A DNA stretch of 39,356 bases, taken from IMG/VR virus record IMGVR_UViG_2671180568_000005; one strand, given 5' to 3'. Every line of letters starts with the position of its first letter. Within the stretch, counting starts at the first letter, position 1. This DNA comes from a virus (taxonomy: Duplodnaviria > Heunggongvirae > Uroviricota > Caudoviricetes). The position numbers and the translations under genes are program-made. Below the pieces are notes generated by a model. The model did no database searches, had not been told where the DNA came from, and was given only the letters and a program-made list of their open reading frames with translations. This document shows positions 4,577-39,356 of the stretch, piece by piece.

Positions 4577-4987
4577 ATGCACGCAAAAGAAGAAGGTATC
4601 ATCAGAGCACTGAAAGAAATTTCAAAGACAGAAAACGAAGTAGCGAAAAAAGCCATAGCAAATAATCATATGGACGTCGCAACCCACACACTGATAGTCG
4701 CAAGAGTCACGGCAGAAGCAGCCGAAATTATCGCAAAACAGGATGCTGAACTGGCGGTTCTCAGAACACAACCAGTCACCGGACTGGATTTGTCTAACAC
4801 CGGACGCCTTATTTACACAATTGGCTCGGAGCTACAGCGATACACCATTATCGCCGGGTTACAGGATAAATACCTGATCACTCCTCACCCCATAAGGGAA
4901 TCAGAAATTCTGACAAATCTCCGCCTGATAGAGCGCTCTCAAGTCGCATTCATTGATGACGCACAGTGCACCGTATTTAACGCATAG
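4577..4987 (+). CDS. Hypothetical early-region protein
   Basis: ORF of 136 aa. Confidence 0.5.
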   Translation: MHAKEEGIIRALKEISKTENEVAKKAIANNHMDVATHTLIVARVTAEAAEIIAKQDAELAVLRTQPVTGLDLSNTGRLIYTIGSELQRYTIIAGLQDKYLITPHPIRESEILTNLRLIERSQVAFIDDAQCTVFNA

Positions 4988-5010
4988 AGTTACTGGACAA
5001 AGGGGGCGCA

Positions 5011-5214
5011 ATGGCAATTAAGCATTTTCCCGTCGTTCGCTTTACCTCCAGAGGGCGCGAATACGAGGTCGACGAACGCCTGATTACCACTATCGACAAA
5101 CATCGTTCGGAAAAGGATGCACACCACATCTACCTCACTGACGGCACTTACTTCTGCGCCACTAATGTGGCGCGGGTAAACCTTATCCGACAGGTACAGG
5201 AGCCACGCAGATGA
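5011..5214 (+). CDS. Hypothetical small protein
   Basis: ORF of 67 aa; stop overlaps the next start. Confidence 0.45.
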   Translation: MAIKHFPVVRFTSRGREYEVDERLITTIDKHRSEKDAHHIYLTDGTYFCATNVARVNLIRQVQEPRR

Positions 5215-5477
5215 CCATTCTGGACTACATCGCTACTCATCCGGGGTGTAGCGGCGGAGAGATCGCCGCAGCACTGAATACTCCAACCACAGCCATTAAT
5301 GCTGAGTTACGCCAACTTTGGCGCGGCGGCTTAGTCATCAGAACAAACCGCAGCACAGGTGGTCGCGCTCGCAAAACTGGAGGCCAGGCTTCTTACCACG
5401 TAAACCCGATGCCGTTCGGGTGTAGCAATCCACTTACTCACATGTTTAACCAGCTACTGAAGGAAGCCAGAACATGA
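5211..5477 (+). CDS. Hypothetical protein, possible winged-helix DNA-binding
   Basis: ORF of 88 aa; overlapping stop and start with both neighbours. Confidence 0.45.
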   Translation: MTILDYIATHPGCSGGEIAAALNTPTTAINAELRQLWRGGLVIRTNRSTGGRARKTGGQASYHVNPMPFGCSNPLTHMFNQLLKEART

Positions 5478-5773
5478 GCACCATCAACCACCAGAAGCTA
5501 CGCGAACTGGCATTTGCCCTGCAACGAATGGCAACGCCTCAAAAATTACTGGCATTTCGCGCAATGCTCTCGCCGTCTGCTGTGCTGGCACTGCTGAATG
5601 AGCTGGAGCACGCCAGAACCACGGCTCCTGCCATTCGCCTGACGCTCCATCATGAAATCGCTGATTTCTGCGCGACGTTGGAGGCGCCGGGCGAACCGGA
5701 AACGCCGGAAGCAATACAGCAAGAGCTGCTGCAACGCATTGACAAGGTTTTTGATTTTTTTCTGAACCAGTAA
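5474..5773 (+). CDS. Hypothetical early-region protein
   Basis: ORF of 99 aa. Confidence 0.5.
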   Translation: MSTINHQKLRELAFALQRMATPQKLLAFRAMLSPSAVLALLNELEHARTTAPAIRLTLHHEIADFCATLEAPGEPETPEAIQQELLQRIDKVFDFFLNQ

Positions 5774-6095
5774 GAAACCAGAACATGCACACACAAAAAA
5801 ACCGCTTGCCATGCCGCAATCAGTCAGGTTACATTTCCGCTGCACCTCATAAAACGGGTGCCGGGTTTCGCAGCCCGCTGACAAACGTAGCGCACAACCG
5901 CGCCAGCGGTTTTTTTGTGCGTACTGTATCGCCACGTCTTTTTCGCATCAGAATTATGGTGGGGCGTACGGGGCCGACTTCGGTCGGGCCGGGTTCTGCG
6001 TTTGCCGGTACTGCGAACCTCGTACGTCTCGCCACCCACAGTTTCGCAGCTCTGGATGGTGAGTTTTCAAAACTTACACACGTAGAGGCCACACC

Positions 6096-6326
6096 ATGGC
6101 AAACCGCAAACAGCACCGCGCTATCGCGGAGCGTCGTCACATCCAGACTGAAATCAACCGCAGACTTTCCCGCGCATCACGCGTCGCGCAAATCATGCAC
6201 ATCAATATGCTGCATGAGCGCAGCCACGCACTATCAAACATTTATTCCGCCGCTGTTTTCAGCTATCTGGCGGATGATCTGCACGAGCTTCAACAGCTCA
6301 TCCAGCAGCAAAACAAACTCCATTAA
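6096..6326 (+). CDS. Hypothetical small basic protein
   Basis: ORF of 76 aa with a weak ribosome-binding site; overlapped by an implausible 205-aa ORF in another frame. Confidence 0.3.
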   Translation: MANRKQHRAIAERRHIQTEINRRLSRASRVAQIMHINMLHERSHALSNIYSAAVFSYLADDLHELQQLIQQQNKLH

Positions 6327-9669: not shown

Positions 9670-10629
9670 ATGAAAATTTGTATCGATGACGGCTCCACCA
9701 ACATCAAGCTGGCATGGACTGAGAACGGCGAACGCCGCAACGCCATCAGCCCGAACAGCTTCAAGTCGGAATGGTCTGCGCCGTTCGGTGGCACGCAGCC
9801 CGCGAACTACATGCTTGATGGCGTGCGCTATGGTTTTGATCCGGTCAGCGATCGCTTTGTCCAGACGACTGACACGCAATACCAGTACAGCGATGTGAAT
9901 GTCATTGCCATTCATCACGCGCTGGTCAAATCAGGCATCACGCCACAGGAGGTGGATGTGGTTGTCACCCTGCCACTGAGCGAGTATTTCGACACAAACG
10001 CACAGCCGGACATAGCCAACATCAACCGCAAAAAAGCGAACGTTATGCGCCCGGTGGAGTACCAGAACGGCGAAGCATTCACTATCCGTAACGTACGGGT
10101 TATGCCTGAATCCATTCCGGCTGGCTTTAAGGCACTGGCTGACATGAGTCCGTTTGAATCCCTGCTGATTGTGGATTTAGGCGGAACCACGCTGGATGTG
10201 GCAAAGGTTCAGGGACAACTGGCAGGTATCAGCCAGGTGTTTTGCGATCCACACGTAGGCGTTTCCCTGATGGCCGATGCCGTACTGTCGGTGATGGCCA
10301 CTAACGGTATGCGTACCAGTCACCACATCGCCAATACCATTATCGAACATCGCCATGATGAAGCCTGGCTGCGCCAGCACATCCACAATGACGCGCATTA
10401 CGCCAGCCTGATGGCGGTTATTCGTGAAAAGGAAGAAACACTGAAACAACGCGTGATCCGCGCGCTGGCGGGTTTTTCGGGTTACGGGCGGGTGATGGTT
10501 GTCGGTGGCGGGGCAGAGATTGTGGCACCCGCTATCCGCGAAGCCTGCGGAGTTAATGCGACTTTCATCGCGGACGGGGTGCCACAGTTTGCTCTGGTTA
10601 ATGGGCTGTACGCAATGGGCAAGGAGTAA
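9670..10629 (+). CDS. parM: ParM/StbA-family actin-like segregation ATPase
   Basis: N-terminus MKICIDDGSTNIKLAW...ISPNSF...YSDVNVIAIHHAL matches the ParM phosphate-1 and adjacent motifs; DLGGTTLDV phosphate-2-like motif. Confidence 0.8.
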   Translation: MKICIDDGSTNIKLAWTENGERRNAISPNSFKSEWSAPFGGTQPANYMLDGVRYGFDPVSDRFVQTTDTQYQYSDVNVIAIHHALVKSGITPQEVDVVVTLPLSEYFDTNAQPDIANINRKKANVMRPVEYQNGEAFTIRNVRVMPESIPAGFKALADMSPFESLLIVDLGGTTLDVAKVQGQLAGISQVFCDPHVGVSLMADAVLSVMATNGMRTSHHIANTIIEHRHDEAWLRQHIHNDAHYASLMAVIREKEETLKQRVIRALAGFSGYGRVMVVGGGAEIVAPAIREACGVNATFIADGVPQFALVNGLYAMGKE

Positions 10630-10633
10630 ACCA

Positions 10634-10945
10634 ATGACGACACCAACCAGACGGATAAGTTTCTATCTGAAGCCCGCCGCCGTCAAGAACGAAGGCGAAG
10701 CATGCGCCTGGCTGGACAGCCTTACACCAGAAGCCCGCAAAAGTGGTCAACGCGTGGCTTTTCTGGCCGGGCTGGCACTACTGAAAATGAATCCGGCAGA
10801 GGCTTACCGACTGGCTGCATGGGCTGATGATGAGGCGTTATCAATGACACAAACCAGGACAGAACGCCCCGCGTCACAGCCAGTATCAGCCGCACAGATA
10901 ACCAGTCAGATGGCCGGAAATATCCGGGCGTTATTTCCCGAATAA
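10634..10945 (+). CDS. parR: ParR/StbB-like centromere-binding adaptor
   Basis: RRISFYLKPAAV...LDSLTPEARKSGQRVAFLAGLALL...IRALFPE parallels R1 ParR (ribbon-helix-helix N-terminus, conserved C-terminal tail); AAGGAG ribosome-binding site; 4 bp after the parM stop. Confidence 0.7.
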   Translation: MTTPTRRISFYLKPAAVKNEGEACAWLDSLTPEARKSGQRVAFLAGLALLKMNPAEAYRLAAWADDEALSMTQTRTERPASQPVSAAQITSQMAGNIRALFPE

Positions 10946-10951
10946 CACAAC

Positions 10952-10977
10952 ATCAGGGCGCATCCGCCCTGATGACT
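10952..10977. promoter_or_regulatory. Perfect 10-bp-stem inverted repeat catcagggcg-catc-cgccctgatg between parR and the next cassette
   Basis: Read directly; no T-run follows, so it may be an operator or a terminator. Confidence 0.4.
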
Positions 10978-11008: not shown

Positions 11009-11341
11009 ATGCAACACATTGACAGAGAAAAAGCGCAGCGACTGATTGAGCGGATGGAAGCGCTGGCGAAAGAAGAAAATGTCAACATCCAAAAAATAGC
11101 TGAATGTGGCCAGATAGTTCTTCGTCGTGAAAAAGACCTCAAACAACTGATGTCTGGCGAAACCAGCAAAACATGGACTTCAGGCAAGGAGACGGTTTAT
11201 TGCAGCTTCTGCAATAAATCCCAGTACGAAGTCACAAAGGTGATTGCCGGACCGTCTGTTTACATCTGCAATGAGTGCGTGGATTTGTGCAATGAAATTA
11301 TCAGGAAAGAAGTGACAGACAAAAAGGAAAAAAACGCATGA
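11009..11341 (+). CDS. Small protein with a ClpX-type C4 zinc-binding domain
   Basis: C-terminal [39 protein letters not shown] is nearly identical in pattern to the E. coli ClpX N-terminal zinc-binding domain ([37 protein letters not shown]); no AAA+ module follows. Confidence 0.75.
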
Positions 11342-11652
11342 ACAGAAAACAGAAACAAGAGTTGAAATACTTCTTACGTAAAGAAATTGCCAGGCTTGAA
11401 GATGCAGAGTCACAATCATCAGAAATTCCGTTCGGAATGGATATCAACGACGCCCGTATGCTCCAGGCATACCGCATAGCTCAGGCTGCACTACAGGCAA
11501 AACCGTCAGATGGACTGGTTAGAGCGGTGCGTTTCTATGAACAGGTAAAGCGTGAGAATCCGCCAGTCGAAACCGGAGCATGGAAAGACGCTGTTGACTG
11601 GGTGCTCAAAGAGGCTTGCCAGTCTGTAAACATTGGCATCAAAGGAGAGTGA
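11338..11652 (+). CDS. Hypothetical protein (104 aa), translationally coupled
   Basis: ATGA overlap with the upstream gene; ends ...IGIKGE. Confidence 0.5.
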
Positions 11653-11654
11653 GA

Positions 11655-12146
11655 ATGCAAATTTCACCGGTTACTCTTCGTGTTGCGAAGGCGTTTATAT
11701 CCAGACATCACCGACACAATAAACCCCCGGTGGGGCATAAATTCAGCATTGGTCTGAGAAATGATGCCGGAGAATTGATAGGTGTGGCGACAGCCGGTCG
11801 ACCTGTTGCACGACATTTGGATGATGGATTAACGCTTGAAGTAAATCGCACATGTACCACAGGAGAACGCAACGCTAACAGCGCGCTTTATGGTGCTGTC
11901 TGGCGGGCAGCAAAAGCTATGGGTTATCAACGTTGTATTACGTACACCCGGGCAGATGAATCAGGAGCATCTCTTCGCGCAGCTGGTTTTGTTCGTGTGA
12001 AAGCGCTTCCTCCAAGAAAAAGCTGGGCGGAATCAAGCGTCGCCCTGCGGAGTAAACGCGATCCAGTCGGAAACGGTGGTGTTCCTCGTGTGCTCTGGGA
12101 AATCAGGATAATGAGTACCACTGGTATTCGCATCAAAGGAGAGTGA
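11655..12146 (+). CDS. Hypothetical protein (163 aa) with an HHRH basic patch
   Basis: Start at the ATG after the repeated junction gcatcaaaggagagtga; ends ...IRIKGE like the preceding gene. Confidence 0.5.
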   Translation: MQISPVTLRVAKAFISRHHRHNKPPVGHKFSIGLRNDAGELIGVATAGRPVARHLDDGLTLEVNRTCTTGERNANSALYGAVWRAAKAMGYQRCITYTRADESGASLRAAGFVRVKALPPRKSWAESSVALRSKRDPVGNGGVPRVLWEIRIMSTTGIRIKGE

Positions 12147-12147
12147 T

Positions 12148-12411
12148 ATGGCAACTTTGACAAAAAAAGAACGGGCATGGTTGAACGAATTACAGGACGT
12201 TCTTGATCGCTGTCCATCACCGAAAAAAATTGGTTTTTACACCATTGGCGATAAAAGCATTTACCTGTATGACCTACGCCGCATGGATGAAATCATGGAG
12301 GCTCTTGATAATCGTTCGTCAATGGATTGGTGTGTTGCTGTCCATGATATGAATGCAGGGTTTGATGAAAAGATTTTGTTCCCCTCATCAGTTGAAAGCA
12401 CAGCAGGATAA
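12148..12411 (+). CDS. Hypothetical protein (87 aa)
   Basis: Follows the second copy of the 17-bp junction repeat. Confidence 0.5.
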   Translation: MATLTKKERAWLNELQDVLDRCPSPKKIGFYTIGDKSIYLYDLRRMDEIMEALDNRSSMDWCVAVHDMNAGFDEKILFPSSVESTAG

Positions 12412-12445
12412 GGACCCAGCAAATATACACAACCTATAAAACACT

Positions 12446-12468
12446 AAAGCGCCTCAGGGGCGCTTTTT
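12446..12468 (+). terminator. Rho-independent terminator aaagcgcctcaggggcgcttttt
   Basis: GC-rich hairpin followed by a T-run after the 4-gene cassette. Confidence 0.6.
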
Positions 12469-12471
12469 GTT

Positions 12472-12498
12472 TGCACAAAAGTGCACAAATTTGCACAA
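12472..12498. repeat. Three copies of TGCACAA phased at 10 bp (12472, 12482, 12492); a fourth at 12564
   Basis: Read directly; helical phasing suggests a protein-binding array. Confidence 0.5.
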
Positions 12499-12997
12499 TT
12501 TTTTTGAACGACTTTTTACCCTTCCGGCCCGCATGGCGGCTGGATCCGTCAAGGATCCGTGCGTGCACAAAAAAACGCGCTTTTTCTGCGCGCAGGTGAC
12601 GGGGGAACAGCCCGCGTTTCAGGGGGTAAATAGCATTCCCTGAACGATGTCGCAGAGACACAACAGAATGGCCATATTTCTCACGCTGAGCATGAAAAAG
12701 GCGTGAGGGCTTTTGATTTGATGGGGTGAAAGGTAAGGCCGTCAAAATCGCACTGAGGCAGCGAGAACATACAGTCAACGCGGTGGAATTGCGTAAGAGT
12801 CTGACCGTCGATGGTGGCGATAAACTGGAAGGCGTCGTGAAATTATCTGATTGATACAGGAGCTGGAGAGCCGGGGCATAAATTTTTTATGCCCCGGCGA
12901 AGCAGCAGACAAGCGAAGCGCGTCAGCGATACGGCACCTTGCCGACCATACTTCATAAGTGCAAAATACGAGCAAAGAAATCAATGGAGGCTGTCTT

Positions 12998-13522
12998 ATG
13001 GTCATTAATTACAAGCAGTTAAGAGAAAAACGGGAGCAGGTAAAGGAGAGCTTTCGCCGCAATGAAGATCTGACCCCGCTTGTACGCCTTGCCCAGGGCA
13101 TTGTTGATGCTTATGAAATCTCGCTGGAGCTGCCATCACAGACCTGGACAGATAGCGACGGTAATCGCCAGCATTACGTTTCATGCGGACTGGAAGCAGC
13201 CGAAGGATTTCGCAGAATGCCTTTATCCCAGATCCCTGCCGCTACCCCCAAAGCATGGGGCAGCAATGATGAGCGAAAACTGACTTTTAGTATTGAAACG
13301 GTGGTTGACGACACACCTGGCGAAGTCGCGTTCGTACACACTCCTGTTTCGATCGCAATGTATAACGATGAAATACAGGTTCGCGTTAATAATAATATCG
13401 TGCCACTTAAAGAAGGTAATTCACCCTACACCACCGTTTGTGAAGCCATTCAATATTACGTTCTCTCTGAAATTGATAATCTCAAGCCTGACGGCACCCA
13501 GAAAATGGTTCAACTCTGGTAA
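12998..13522 (+). CDS. Hypothetical protein (174 aa) between the structured noncoding region and the portal gene
   Basis: GGAGG 7 nt upstream of the ATG; followed by a bidirectional terminator. Confidence 0.5.
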   Translation: MVINYKQLREKREQVKESFRRNEDLTPLVRLAQGIVDAYEISLELPSQTWTDSDGNRQHYVSCGLEAAEGFRRMPLSQIPAATPKAWGSNDERKLTFSIETVVDDTPGEVAFVHTPVSIAMYNDEIQVRVNNNIVPLKEGNSPYTTVCEAIQYYVLSEIDNLKPDGTQKMVQLW

Positions 13523-21292: not shown

Positions 21293-23169
21293 CCAGTAAG
21301 AACTTTGCACTGATTACAGCCATGACACAGGCTGAACTGACTCAAAAGGTGAATGAACATCTTGCGAAAGGGTGGCATCTTCAGGGGGAGACGCGGGTTG
21401 CCTACGAACCCGGCACCCCGTGGTATCTAATGCAGGCAATGGTGGCCGATGGCACTACAGACATCTCACCTGATTCCCCCCAGCACGGCAGCGTGCCGGA
21501 GTGGTATTACGTGGTGGTACTTGCTGGTCAATCCAATGCCATGTCATATGGTGATGGAATGCCGCTGCCGGATTCTTACGATGCGCCCCACCCACGCATT
21601 AAGCAACTGGCCCGTCGCAACACAGTGACTCCCGGTGGTAAAGCATGCGCATTTAACGACATCATTCCGGCAGACCACTGCCTGCATGATGTTCAGGATA
21701 TGAGCGCACTGAATCATCCGAAGGCAGACCTGAGCAAAGGGCAGTACGGCTGTGTCGGCCAGGGCTTACATATTGCCAAAAAACTGCTCCCGTATATCCC
21801 GAATAACGCGGGGATCCTGCTGGTACCATGCTGCCGTGGTGGTTCGGCATTCACTCAGGGCGCGGAGGGAACATTCAGTACGACCACGGGGGCCAGCCAG
21901 GATTCGGCGCGCTGGGGTGTGGGTAAACCGTTATATCAGGACCTGATTGCGCGCACTAAAGCTGCATTACAGAAGAACCCGAAAAATGTGTTGCTGGCGG
22001 TGTGCTGGATGCAGGGCGAATTTGACATGAGCGCTGCCACCTACGCACAGCAACCGGACCTGTTCACGGCCATGCTGAAGCAGTTCCGTACTGACCTTTC
22101 CGGATTTAACGCGCAGTGCCATGGCGGCAGTGCTGCAGTTGTACCGTGGATTTGTGGCGACACGACGTATTACTGGAAAAACACATACGGCACACAGTAT
22201 GACTCCGTCTACGGCGCGTACAAAAACAGGGAGAGCGACAACGTTTTCTTTGTGCCGTTCATGACCGACGGTAACGGCAACAACACACCCACCAACTTAC
22301 CGGCAGAAGACCCGGATATTGCTGATGCAGGTTATTACGGCGCGCAATCCCGTAGTAATGGTAATTGGGTATCGTCAAATCGTCCGACACATTTCAGTTC
22401 ATGGGCGCGCAGGGGCATTATTTCGGATCGCCTGGCAACCGCTATTCTGAACGCAGTTGGTCGAACCAGCGCCTTCATCAGCGGTACCGCACCGGAGATT
22501 AAACCCTCNNNNNNNNNNNNNNNNNNNNNNNNNNNNNNNNNNNNNNNNNNNNNNNNNNNNNNNNNNNNNNNNNNNNNNNNNNNNNNNNNNNNNNNNNNNN
22601 NNNNNNNNNNNNNNNNNNNNNNNNNNNNNNNNNNNNNNNNNNNNNNNNNNNNNNNNNNNNNNNNNNNNNNNNNNNNNNNNNNNNNNNNNNNNNNNNNNNN
22701 NNNNNNNNNNNNNNNNNNNNNNNNNNNNNNNNNNNNNNNNNNNNNNNNNNNNNNNNNNNNNNNNNNNNNNNNNNNNNNNNNNNNNNNNNNNNNNNNNNNN
22801 NNNNNNNNNNNNNNNNNNNNNNNNNNNNNNNNNNNNNNNNNNNNNNNNNNNNNNNNNNNNNNNNNNNNNNNNNNNNNNNNNNNNNNNNNNNNNNNNNNNN
22901 NNNNNNNNNNNNNNNNNNNNNNNNNNNNNNNNNNNNNNNNNNNNNNNNNNNNNNNNNNNNNNNNNNNNNNNNNNNNNNNNNNNNNNNNNNNNNNNNNNNN
23001 CACGGTTACTCCGAAACTGAATGGAGTGGCTGGCCCGGCATTCCAGGTCATAAAAGACAGTCTGACACTGGGGCTGAATGCGCTGACGTTAACTGATATC
23101 ACTAAAAATGCCGCGTACGGCGTCGATATCGGCAGCCTGGTGCTGGAAATCAATAATCCCGCAGTATAA
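21289..23169 (+). CDS. NanS-p-like sialate O-acetylesterase (DUF1737-like N-domain plus SASA/SGNH domain); interior replaced by a 492-N gap
   Basis: N-terminus ITAMTQAELTQKVNEHLAKGWHLQGE and esterase block VVVLAGQSNAMSYGDG (GQSN motif); residues encoded by 22509-23000 are unknown. Confidence 0.65.
   Translation: MTSKNFALITAMTQAELTQKVNEHLAKGWHLQGETRVAYEPGTPWYLMQAMVADGTTDISPDSPQHGSVPEWYYVVVLAGQSNAMSYGDGMPLPDSYDAPHPRIKQLARRNTVTPGGKACAFNDIIPADHCLHDVQDMSALNHPKADLSKGQYGCVGQGLHIAKKLLPYIPNNAGILLVPCCRGGSAFTQGAEGTFSTTTGASQDSARWGVGKPLYQDLIARTKAALQKNPKNVLLAVCWMQGEFDMSAATYAQQPDLFTAMLKQFRTDLSGFNAQCHGGSAAVVPWICGDTTYYWKNTYGTQYDSVYGAYKNRESDNVFFVPFMTDGNGNNTPTNLPAEDPDIADAGYYGAQSRSNGNWVSSNRPTHFSSWARRGIISDRLATAILNAVGRTSAFISGTAPEIKPXXXXXXXXXXXXXXXXXXXXXXXXXXXXXXXXXXXXXXXXXXXXXXXXXXXXXXXXXXXXXXXXXXXXXXXXXXXXXXXXXXXXXXXXXXXXXXXXXXXXXXXXXXXXXXXXXXXXXXXXXXXXXXXXXXXXXXXXXXXXXXXXXXXXXXXXXXXXXXXXXXXXXTVTPKLNGVAGPAFQVIKDSLTLGLNALTLTDITKNAAYGVDIGSLVLEINNPAV
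22509..23000. other. Gap (492 N) inside the esterase gene
   Basis: Run of n characters. Confidence 0.99.
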
Positions 23170-23192
23170 GGAAGAGCAGGAGAGCAAAACAG

Positions 23193-28446: not shown

Positions 28447-29061
28447 TCAACTGGCAAGTGCCAGTGGTGCTTCCGGCCAGCTGATTTCAGGTGCCGTGCT
28501 GATATCCAGTGCGTTCAGCTCGTCGATATAATCCAGCACGGCGTTCAGTTTTGCCGTTTCTTCTGGTGTCAGACTGCGACCAGCACGCAGTTTGAGGTTG
28601 ATAAGATCGACGGACGCCATCGCCTGTTTCACCCGTTGCTGGCGTTGCTGTCTGGCAACCTCCAGTTCTGCGGTTCGCTGCCGTTCAGTATCGGTTACCC
28701 ACGCCTCACCGTTCCAGGTATCCCATGGCGTGGCTGGCTGTTTTGTGGTGGTGTCCGCCGGGTAATCACCCGGTTGGGTAATCAGAACGGGGTTACCGTT
28801 CTCCGTGCTGTATACCGTCTCGCCGCGGTGATCAGGCACATGCTCCCACCCGTTCAGCGTGGCAGTCCGGCAAACCACGTAACCCGAAATTGCCTCCGGC
28901 GGTGCATCGGCGCACGAATGTGCCGGAGTACCCACCCCAAGGGCGAGATACTCCACAGAGGATGAGGTGTATTCCCGGGTTTCCTCGTCATAGTGATATA
29001 CAGTGATATCGCCCGCTACAGTGGCGATACCGTTTTCATCCAGAACTGCAGTGTTACTCAT
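28447..29061 (-). CDS. Tail fibre assembly chaperone (Tfa/gpG/Mu U family)
   Basis: 204 aa with a C-terminal ...LDYIDELNALDISTAPEISWPEAP tail typical of Tfa proteins; adjacent to the alternative fibre tip. Confidence 0.75.
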   Translation of the reverse strand: MSNTAVLDENGIATVAGDITVYHYDEETREYTSSSVEYLALGVGTPAHSCADAPPEAISGYVVCRTATLNGWEHVPDHRGETVYSTENGNPVLITQPGDYPADTTTKQPATPWDTWNGEAWVTDTERQRTAELEVARQQRQQRVKQAMASVDLINLKLRAGRSLTPEETAKLNAVLDYIDELNALDISTAPEISWPEAPLALAS

Positions 29062-29630
29062 TAAACTGCCCTCACAATGTAATTAAGTGCAATGCTACGG
29101 GGTCTGACAGTGATACCCTTCGCATACCCGCTTCTGATAGAGGTCAGAATAGTAGCCTGCATACCATTGTCTGACATTGCTATGACAGGATCGCTGAATG
29201 TTGTCCCGTCCGGCATTTTAAAGCTGCCCTCACGAAGGTCTGTAATGGAATCTTCATTGTTGAATCCCATGCCGACTATCCCCGAGGTTCCCGTAGTGTC
29301 CTGGTTATAATAATCCAGCATTGCTGTTCTTAACAGCGTTGCCCCTTGTGCGGACAGCAACTTACGTCCTGTATCAACTTTGCGCCCGTCATCCCATCCA
29401 CGGATAAACTCACCGCGTAAATCGGGAAGACGGAGGGTCGGGTAGGCTCTGGCCAGAACAGGATATTGTTCTTTTGTAAAGGCGCGCCCGTCGCACTTTA
29501 ACCAGCCTGCTGGCGGTGTGGCGGTGGGCCACGGAACAGGCACACCAACGGGTAGCGCCGAGCCTTCTCCTAAACCAACGTTTTCGTTTTTATCCCTACC
29601 TATACCAACTCTGTATTTTTCACGAAACAA
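29061..29630 (-). CDS. Alternative tail-fibre C-terminal cassette, promoterless and on the opposite strand
   Basis: Shares GLGEGSALPVGVPVPWPTATPPAGWL and the C-terminal NYIVRA motif with the tip at 27979-28440; begins with TTG and has no independent ribosome-binding site. Confidence 0.7.
   Translation of the reverse strand: MFREKYRVGIGRDKNENVGLGEGSALPVGVPVPWPTATPPAGWLKCDGRAFTKEQYPVLARAYPTLRLPDLRGEFIRGWDDGRKVDTGRKLLSAQGATLLRTAMLDYYNQDTTGTSGIVGMGFNNEDSITDLREGSFKMPDGTTFSDPVIAMSDNGMQATILTSIRSGYAKGITVRPRSIALNYIVRAV
29565..29590. promoter_or_regulatory. Candidate right crossover site for the invertase (ttctcctaaaccaacgttttcgtttt), mirrored across the gap at about 27955-27990
   Basis: AAACC/GGTTT half-site pattern reminiscent of hix/gix/cix sites; position immediately upstream of the invertase gene. 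Confidence 0.35.
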
Positions 29631-29644
29631 AGAGGATGTTTTTT

Positions 29645-30244
29645 ATGCAAATTGGCTATATTCGTGTGTCAACAAACGACCAGAACACGGATTTACAACG
29701 CAATGCACTGAACTGCGCAGGATGTGAACTGATTTTTGAAGATAAAATCAGCGGAACGAAATCAACCAGACCGGGATTGAAAAAACTGCTCAGAACGCTA
29801 TCAGAAGGAGATACGCTGGTTGTCTGGAAGCTGGACAGACTGGGCAGAAGTATGAAACACCTGATCACGCTTATTGAGGAATTGCGGGAAAAAGGTGTTA
29901 ATTTCCGTAGTCTGACGGACAGCATTGACACGTCAACACCCATGGGGCGTTTCTTTTTTCACGTCATGGGGGCTTTAGCCGAAATGGAACGTGAATTAAT
30001 TGTAGAACGTACACTGGCTGGGCTGGCAGCAGCACGCGCACAAGGACGCATTGGCGGACGTCGCCCGAAGTTGACAAAAGAACAACACGAGCAAATAGCG
30101 AGGCTGATTAAAAACGGTCATGACAGGAAACAACTGGCGATCATTTACGACATCGGCATATCGACGATTTATCGTTATCACCCTGTAGGCGATATACAGG
30201 CTGAAGAAACAACCAGGCAGACTCAGGAAAATGAAAACCGCTAA
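29645..30244 (+). CDS. Serine DNA invertase of the Hin/Gin/Pin/Cin family
   Basis: MQIGYIRVSTNDQNTDLQRNAL...VVWKLDRLGRSMKHLI...GRFFFHVMGALAEMERELI with the catalytic Ser in YIRVST and a C-terminal HTH. Confidence 0.9.
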   Translation: MQIGYIRVSTNDQNTDLQRNALNCAGCELIFEDKISGTKSTRPGLKKLLRTLSEGDTLVVWKLDRLGRSMKHLITLIEELREKGVNFRSLTDSIDTSTPMGRFFFHVMGALAEMERELIVERTLAGLAAARAQGRIGGRRPKLTKEQHEQIARLIKNGHDRKQLAIIYDIGISTIYRYHPVGDIQAEETTRQTQENENR

Positions 30245-30263
30245 TCTGACCATTAGCGGTTTT
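30234..30263. terminator. Bidirectional terminator hairpin aaaaccgctaat-ctgacc-attagcggtttt between the convergent invertase and U genes
   Basis: 12-bp perfect stem flanked by A and T runs. Confidence 0.65.
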
Positions 30264-30270
30264 GCGTTAA

Positions 30271-30765
30271 TCAAAACAGCCCTTTAACAGAGCTGGCCGC
30301 GCTGTTGAGGGATGATGTGACCTTATCTTTGAAGCCGGACAGCATATCACTGAACGATGAGGATTGCAGACGCTCCCGCAAATCCTCATCACAGCGTTCA
30401 AGAGTCAGTGAAAATTCTATCTTTTTCGCCTTACCATAGCGATCAAACTCGGAACGGGTCGTATTCGTTTCAGTCAGTACATACATGCCGTAAATCTGCC
30501 CGACACCATCAATCAGAGGCCAGGGGCGTCCTGTATATGCCTGCGTGGTCAGCAACGAAAGCGACACTTCGCCACCTGTAATTTCAGGATAAAGCACGCC
30601 GGAAAGCACGATGCGATCATCACCTGCACCGATATACTGCCAGCTTGCTGAGCGGTTTACGCGCTCATTTTTCACATGCCGCCAGCTTTTGTTTTGCTGT
30701 AACTGCTGATGCGGCAATGTGCGCAGCTCAAAAACAAACATGCCGTAGATCATCATCATGGCCAT
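30271..30765 (-). CDS. U: Tail protein (P2 gpU-like)
   Basis: FVFELRTLPHQQLQQNKSWRH...RIVLSGVLYPEITGG parallels gpU. Confidence 0.8.
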   Translation of the reverse strand: MAMMMIYGMFVFELRTLPHQQLQQNKSWRHVKNERVNRSASWQYIGAGDDRIVLSGVLYPEITGGEVSLSLLTTQAYTGRPWPLIDGVGQIYGMYVLTETNTTRSEFDRYGKAKKIEFSLTLERCDEDLRERLQSSSFSDMLSGFKDKVTSSLNSAASSVKGLF

Positions 30766-37916: not shown

Positions 37917-37948
37917 AAGCCCACAGCATAGAAGCTGTGGGCTTTTTG
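37917..37948 (+). terminator. Second terminator hairpin (gcccacagc ... gctgtgggc followed by ttttt)
   Basis: Read directly. Confidence 0.6.
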
Positions 37949-38021
37949 CATTCAAAGATGGACGTTATATGGACACTTAAAAATAAAATCCATTTATTTT
38001 CAAATGATTAAACCTCTACTT

Positions 38022-38041
38022 AAAGCGCCCGCAGGCGCTTT
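38022..38041. repeat. Candidate attR core (identical to 585-604), forming the serS-proximal terminator hairpin
   Basis: Perfect 20-bp direct repeat, 22 bp downstream of the serS stop. Confidence 0.6.
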
Positions 38042-38063
38042 TTAGATTCAGAAAAATTGGGTA

Positions 38064-39356
<1,293 letters not shown>

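Follow-up and report, generated by a model that had tools for sequence, protein, structure and literature searches.

Do four small genes that lie end to end in a prophage form one functional system, or are they separate passengers that share a site? The question is raised by positions 11009-12411 of a 39,356-nucleotide stretch of viral DNA (the window; IMG/VR record IMGVR_UViG_2671180568_000005, Caudoviricetes). An earlier note, made from the sequence alone, had described here four tightly packed genes on the + strand, headed by a free-standing copy of the ClpX zinc-binding domain (ZBD), and had taken them for a coupled cassette that might act in defence and had not yet been described. The four consecutive open reading frames (ORFs), hereafter g1 to g4, are present, and their RefSeq annotation is identical in E. 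coli DA33135. They are probably not one system: the evidence favors an array of separately exchangeable accessory genes in the variable gpA-gpQ hotspot of a P88-like E. coli prophage, in which a 17-mer repeated at two junctions represents an Ea22-type gene end and g1 mimics the docking domain of ClpX. The elements of the array are as follows.

g1, 11009-11341, + strand: 110 amino acids (aa), stand-alone ClpX zinc-binding-domain protein (WP_001163784, phrog_6797)
g2, 11338-11652, + strand: 104 aa, a protein of two modules
g2 N-terminal module, residues 1-56, 11338-11506, + strand: shared with P88 gp20 and with the alternative 135-aa g2 of CFSAN004176
g2 C-terminal module, 11507-11652, + strand: Ea22-type ending …NIGIKGE, common in lambdoid prophage genes
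17-mer copy 1, 11636-11652, + strand: encodes G-I-K-G-E-stop; P88 homology breaks here
g3, 11655-12146, + strand: 163 aa, XF1762-family GNAT-fold protein (WP_001167295)
17-mer copy 2, 12130-12146, + strand: identical to the 3' end of lambda ea22
g4, 12148-12411, + strand: 87 aa, no assigned function (WP_000224227, phrog_1714)
Hairpin resembling an intrinsic terminator, with a T run, 12446-12472, + strand: closes the array; P88-like homology resumes here

The packing is tight: g1 and g2 overlap in ATGA, 2 nt separate g2 from g3, and 1 nt separates g3 from g4. Since a terminator follows g4 and a consensus scan found no sigma-70-like promoter site before g1, the array looks like the promoter-distal end of an early rightward operon.

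Hotspot position and mosaic origin

E. coli chromosomes, e.g., those of DA33135 and PCN033, match the window at 100% identity. The window comprises a complete P2-family prophage, from integrase to ogr, located beside serS; among named phages, P88 (Xuanwuvirus, Peduoviridae) is nearest to it. Around the array, the genes follow in the order replication endonuclease, ParM, ParR-like, g1, g2, g3, g4, the terminator, a 174-aa ORF and, on the opposite strand, the portal gene. The array thus occupies the P2 gpA-gpQ (tin/old) interval, between the replication endonuclease (with ParM and ParR) and the portal gene, as the earlier note had recognized, and the cargo in this interval is swapped in close relatives. 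In P2, the interval is a documented hotspot that houses tin and old (Rousset et al., 2022; PMC9122126). A partition module is found at this hotspot in roughly one in four P2-like phages, and Rousset et al. suggested plasmid maintenance as its role (PMC9122126). The window array shares with the P2 hotspot its position and its rapid cargo replacement (PMC9122126); it differs in that its cargo matches no known defence profile and resembles lambdoid early-region accessory genes. Nor is the arrangement new, as had been supposed: the supplementary table of the same study contains the exact protein set as "StbA + zf-C4_ClpX + hypothetical x4 + Plasmid_stab_B", comprising WP_001163784, WP_001080491, WP_001167295, WP_000224227 and neighbors, which are uncharacterised there, and no mention of ClpX or StbA was found in the main text (PMC9122126).

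How often the four genes keep company can be read from 5426 complete E. coli genomes. Taken singly, g4 is found in 979 genomes, the N-terminal half of g2 in 185, g3 in 154 and g1 in 112, while the whole array, at least 80% covered, is present in 33. Of the 1616 genomes with at least one part of the array, 33 thus have all four genes together, i.e., the genes fail to co-occur in related prophages, and the reading of the array as a co-inherited cassette is refuted on that account. Moreover, with 97-100% identity across the region, these 33 genomes reflect one lineage, not independent co-selection. Elsewhere the genes are found in other combinations. P88 has g1 and g2 only; CFSAN004176 has g1 and a g2 with a different C-terminal half (135 aa); strain 266917_2 has g1, g2, a pseudogene and a g4-like gene; in strain C3, a Doc/Phd toxin-antitoxin pair comes after g1; and another P2-like prophage carries a g2 homolog with neither ParMR nor g1.

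Pairwise BLAST comparisons place the homology breakpoints at 11342 (the end of g1), 11506/7 (inside g2), 11648-11652 (the first 17-mer), 12120-12135 (the second 17-mer), 12414 (the end of g4) and 12458-12473 (the terminator). A lambdoid prophage of strain B19374 (L008) matches the window at 98.7% over 11507-12414 and encodes identical g3 and g4 proteins; there, g3 is preceded by a 119-aa gene with the C-terminal half of g2. In the P22-like phages Kapi1 and VSe13 and in a lambdoid phage, homologs of g3 or g4 lie directly after Ead/Ea22-like genes in early accessory regions. The array is composed of two parts: g1 and the N-terminal half of g2 belong to the P88-type lineage, while the C-terminal half of g2, g3 and g4 form one block shared with a lambdoid prophage and joined to the P88-type part inside g2. 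The g2 protein, with its two modules, is itself a chimera.

A single functional system, i.e., an anti-phage defence or counter-defence operon with the ZBD protein as its sensor or regulator, could draw on the tight translational coupling, on the tin/old genes and many defence systems that the gpA-gpQ hotspot holds, and on the recurrence of the same arrangement in 33 genomes and in the Rousset catalogue, yet it is very improbable, with each gene found far more often without the others, breakpoints at every gene junction, the 33 genomes nearly identical, g3 and g4 being ordinary early-region genes of lambdoid and P22-like phages, and no PADLOC-DB 2.0 profile matching any of the four proteins at E<=0.1, so that the proposed link to defence systems found no support there either.

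Some observations do weigh against the view that the genes are independently exchanged cargo. Since many defence systems reside in this hotspot, some of the genes may have a role in defence. Next, g1 and the N-terminal half of g2 overlap translationally and usually travel together in P88-like prophages; they may be a two-gene functional pair. The block from the C-terminal half of g2 to g4 would have been imported from the lambdoid pool, a direction of transfer that we infer from the usual place of g3 and g4 in the early regions of lambdoid elements. Finally, a consensus promoter scan is weak evidence on expression in lysogens. The separate exchange of accessory genes is still the account that we prefer: a proposed new four-gene system becomes a better-defined hotspot cargo built from independently exchanged modules. 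One lead that remains is a host-mimicking ClpX docking domain that strong purifying selection has kept in temperate phages.

Two features lie directly upstream of the array. One is the ParM/ParR-like plasmid-partition module, at 9670-10945, which is here part of an integrated prophage of the P2 family. The other is a strong GC-rich hairpin of 10 bp (10951-10974), which lies between the ParR-like gene and g1 and has a terminator score on the minus strand only.

The repeated 17-mer

The sequence GCATCAAAGGAGAGTGA had been noted at two junctions of the array. The repeat is exact and occurs exactly twice in the window, whereas two copies were seen in 0 of 100 shuffles; the second copy lies where it was reported, and the first lies one base to the right of the 11635-11651 given then, at 11636-11652. 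No direct repeat in the region is stronger than the one with the 17-mer at its core, which extends to 36 nt at 83% identity. As also noted then, the consecutive products of g2 and g3 end in IGIKGE and IRIKGE.

What the repeat marks is a kind of gene end. Lambda ea22 terminates in …GCTGGCATTCGCATCAAAGGAGAGTGA, encoding …DAGIRIKGE*: the same 17-mer and the same protein tail as in g3. The conserved end of Ea22-type genes is K-G-E-stop, AAAGGAGAGTGA. At least 127 occurrences of the 17-mer were found in at least 120 viral contigs. Among the matches listed, the ORFs that end in the 17-mer fall into 10 protein clusters, with 88 of the 122 in a single Ea22-like cluster, and the 101 proteins encoded by ORFs starting just after it fall into 19 clusters; the downstream genes include 18 that are g4-like, six that are g3-like and, in two contigs, a g1-like gene for a 107-aa ClpX-ZBD protein. 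Far from marking this cassette, the 17-mer is the 3' terminus conserved in genes of the lambda ea22 type, and it joins varied modules promiscuously. The 107-aa g1-like protein, found after Ea22-like genes in two IMG/VR contigs (L015, L078), has the same helical N-terminus as g1 and a more diverged ZBD; because its gene follows the 17-mer there, a ClpX-ZBD gene also belongs to the pool found behind Ea22-type endings.

The joint does more than end a gene. Its AAA-GGA-GAG codons hold the Shine-Dalgarno sequence AAGGAG, 7 nt before the ATG of g3 in copy 1 and 6 nt before the ATG of g4 in copy 2, and in this way the 17-mer also provides the following gene with its ribosome-binding site. In a published comparison, every Ea22 protein was found to have a basic residue and then Gly-Glu at its C-terminus ('+GE'), an ending of "significance unknown" (PMC7093339). 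This tail may have been kept because its codons double as the ribosome-binding site of the gene that follows. In addition, the conserved 17-mer would offer a homologous patch where modules can change places by homologous exchange.

The exo-xis (ea) region of lambda is a close parallel. The window contains the exact 17-mer and the …GIRIKGE end of ea22, and g3 and g4 homologs in lambdoid and P22-like phages come directly after Ead/Ea22-like genes. The parallel has limits: apart from the tail, BLASTP detects no significant similarity between g2 and lambda Ea22, and the window modules sit in a P2-family phage. A joint that combines a gene end with a ribosome-binding site would permit exchange even between lambdoid and P2-family phages, and would offer a simple explanation for the Ea22 '+GE' ending.

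A putative mimic of the ClpX docking domain

The protein encoded by g1 divides into two parts.

g1 N-terminal region, residues 1-55, 11009-11173, + strand: predicted two-helix hairpin (H6-22, H27-48), then a linker
g1 ZBD core, residues 64-102, 11198-11314, + strand: Cys65, Cys68, Cys87, Cys90

The original description of g1 as a free-standing ClpX ZBD, fused to an unrelated N-terminus and devoid of an AAA+ module, is borne out. In a profile search, residues 64-99 match Pfam PF06689 (zf-C4_ClpX) at 64.7 bits (cut-off 27; E=6.8e-18), C65, C68, C87 and C90 align with the zinc-ligand cysteines of ClpX, and the core is identical to residues 14-52 of E. coli ClpX at 31 of 39 positions (79%). The best matches in the PDB are 1OVX and 2DS5, structures of the E. 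coli ClpX ZBD (E about 1e-19). The AAA+ module is absent: the ClpX unfoldase profile (TIGR00382 / NF003745) reaches 51 bits against a cut-off of 371 and is matched at model positions 6-54 only. An AlphaFold model of g1 (mean predicted local distance difference test score 79.7) consists of a hairpin of helices 6-22 and 27-48, a disordered linker (residues 49-62) and the ZBD, which fits 2DS5, 2DS6 and 2DS8 with a root-mean-square deviation of 0.7-0.8 Å (template modelling score 0.87-0.91 against 2DS5/2DS8). The hairpin found no fold match when the model was searched with Foldseek, and the N-terminal region has relatives within the g1 family only. Full-length relatives of g1 occur only in E. coli, E. 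albertii and Salmonella.

The domain is not a recent capture of E. coli clpX. The g1 core and clpX are 67.5% identical in nucleotide sequence, codons are shared at only 12 of the 31 identical residues, and synonymous sites are saturated; by Nei-Gojobori counting, the proportions of nonsynonymous and synonymous differences (pN and pS) are 0.165 and 0.985. These values point to an old divergence from clpX under purifying selection. Within the g1 family, the ZBD is nearly invariant even in homologs with 42-50% overall identity, and so are F67 and I97, which correspond to F16 and I46 of ClpX. In ClpX, the hydrophobic patch around F16/I46 binds lambda O, SspB, RssB and trigger factor (PMC7804408). 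Relative to the N-terminal ZBD of E. coli ClpX (1OVX, 2DS5-2DS8), then, g1 keeps the C4 zinc ribbon plus helix and the F16/I46 ligand patch, but it lacks the AAA+ module and is fused to a phage-specific helical hairpin. By its sequence, g1 is conserved and appears to imitate the docking domain of ClpX, the unfoldase of the host. It is not a fixed backbone gene of ParMR-bearing P2-like prophages: this candidate explanation was rejected, as many StbA + Plasmid_stab_B loci lack g1 (PMC9122126, table).

What could such a mimic do? Isolated ClpX ZBD added in trans inhibits RssB-mediated degradation of sigmaS in vitro (PMC7226468), which makes a titration or decoy role of g1 biochemically plausible by analogy. 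Because its ZBD and F16/I46 patch are almost unchanged and a free ZBD inhibits in trans, g1 would most likely dimerise and compete with ClpX for N-domain-dependent adaptors and substrates, or pair with the ClpX N-domain itself. We tentatively propose that g1 may be a phage-encoded decoy, or a hetero-pairing partner, of the ClpX docking domain that reprograms the ClpXP of the host by shifting its specificity at the stage when early genes are expressed. The proposed decoy role draws on sequence conservation and on in-vitro data that concern the E. coli domain only. A functional analogy for the decoy idea is provided by mycobacterial ClpC2, a stand-alone protein partly homologous to the N-terminal domain of ClpC1, for which it serves as a decoy (PMC10030653); ClpC2 belongs to another domain family, is encoded by a cellular gene and binds an antibiotic. 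Should the decoy role be correct, g1 could stabilise N-domain-dependent substrates, e.g., replication proteins, sigmaS or antitoxins, and would represent a type of phage protease modulator of which the literature searched gave no description. That literature yielded no paper on phage stand-alone ClpX ZBD proteins, and a search for 'zf-C4_ClpX' returned nothing relevant to g1-type phage proteins.

Two other roles are unlikely, each about equally so. In the first, g1 would be an adaptor whose ZBD docks on, or pairs with, the ClpX N-domain while the hairpin, possibly together with the g2 N-terminal module, hands over a particular protein, of host or phage, to ClpXP for destruction. The arrangement of two domains around a flexible linker in the model, the conservation of the hairpin within the g1 family, the identity of ZBD core and helix residues to ClpX, and the ATGA overlap of g1 and g2 would all suit an adaptor; it is disfavored by the occurrence of g1 without g2 and of g2 without g1, and by the putative status of ClpX heterodimerisation. 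In the second, the ZBD would serve as a generic zinc-ribbon dimerisation module with a role unrelated to ClpX, e.g., in a small regulator of phage development. The zf-C4_ClpX domain does exist in other architectures and in many short proteins, and has been found in cyanobacterial sigma factors (PMC11119718); furthermore, the neighboring genes of the lambdoid exo-xis region are small developmental regulators. A generic module, however, would hardly explain why 79% identity to the host domain has been kept despite saturated synonymous divergence, or why the residues of the surface ligand patch, which exceed the needs of fold and dimer, have been kept too.

In the E. coli C3 relative (L006, 2501-3754), the Doc/Phd toxin-antitoxin pair lies directly after g1. 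Phd of phage P1 is a ClpXP substrate. The placement of a ClpX-domain mimic beside Doc/Phd is suggestive, and may be a coincidence of the hotspot.

Partner genes and other features of the prophage

The three partners of g1 had been described as proteins without a nameable motif. This still holds for g4, which has no domain assignment; g3 proves to be an XF1762/Mom-like GNAT, and the C-terminal half of g2 is a module that matches phrog_26213, phrog_660 and phrog_250. Neither g2 nor g4 has a match in Pfam or NCBIfam, and a PDB sequence search gave nothing meaningful for either. The g4 family (phrog_1714) is confined to Enterobacterales and is the most widespread of the four.

For g3, the family assignment is firm: NCBIfam NF045478 (XF1762) scores 202.9 bits (cut-off 50), in a family with more than 5000 homologs and strongly conserved or invariant motifs. 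Like Mu Mom, g3 is a member of phrog_1384, "Mom-like DNA modification protein". The Mom enzyme modifies DNA adenine with the help of Gly-tRNAGly, and its activity depends on R111, S124, R151 and a helix-turn-helix (HTH)-like insertion at 175-209, whose deletion abolishes it (PMC13219725). Could g3 be a true Mom-type enzyme that protects phage DNA from restriction? The shared PHROG, a precomputed PF25680 assignment on close homologs and a GNAT fold with the Mom structure 8BV8 among the best structural matches would argue for it, as would the family-invariant g3 residues that align with Mom H58, R111 and S124 (S124 by our own alignment, and with direct Mom alignments being weak). We nevertheless find it unlikely. 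The Pfam Mom profile (PF25680) reaches 22 bits against a cut-off of 27.1, the HTH-like insertion is absent and R151 apparently so, no com-like regulator is present, and other GNATs score equally well in the structural comparison. Direct comparison with Mu Mom by BLASTP, hhalign and hmmsearch returned a weak match around ELNR/EVNR only, so the link to Mom rests on the shared PHROG and the fold; a PDB sequence search with g3 gave nothing meaningful. Compared with Mu Mom (8BV8), g3 is about 80 residues shorter, and it matches positions 21-159 only of the 245-position phrog_1384 profile. The preferred description of g3 is a putative Mom-lineage GNAT, not a demonstrated Mom: probably a small GNAT-fold acyltransferase acting on an unspecified acceptor. 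Since the XF1762 family core ends near residue 150 and the tails vary beyond it, the g3 tail STTGIRIKGE fits an origin from the junction.

Elsewhere, XF1762 genes are found in arrays of small early genes with no constant partner and, once, beside a Kiwa system: in a Klebsiella prophage (L132-L134, 4001-6381), the homolog neighbors KwaA/KwaB, downstream of IstB-like and DUF977 genes. The term 'XF1762' had no match in the literature searched. XF1762 may represent a very widespread 'mini-Mom' GNAT family and offers a testable lead alongside the tRNA-dependent chemistry of Mom.

The rest of the prophage holds several further features. Between the terminator and the portal gene, the 174-aa ORF (12998-13522; WP_000236495, phrog_5091) has no function assigned; it recurs in several P88-like hotspot arrangements and is absent from P88 itself. 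The intergenic region 12458-12926 is conserved among P88-like relatives and includes a perfect 13-nt inverted repeat, GCCGGGGCATAAA/TTTATGCCCCGGC, at 12870-12898; the region may be part of the cos region. The early region at 4898-6326 encodes an SPFH-domain protein, an ash pseudogene and a 'derepression protein', and a Hok/Gef toxin gene (37928-38068) lies at the prophage end beside serS. A DUF6645 protein of 626 aa is annotated at 21301-23181, with the lysis genes on one side and the tail genes on the other; P2 is not known to have a large gene at this place. Finally, within 28939-30555, a recombinase-family gene is flanked by tail-protein genes in opposite orientations, which suggests an invertible tail-fibre segment.

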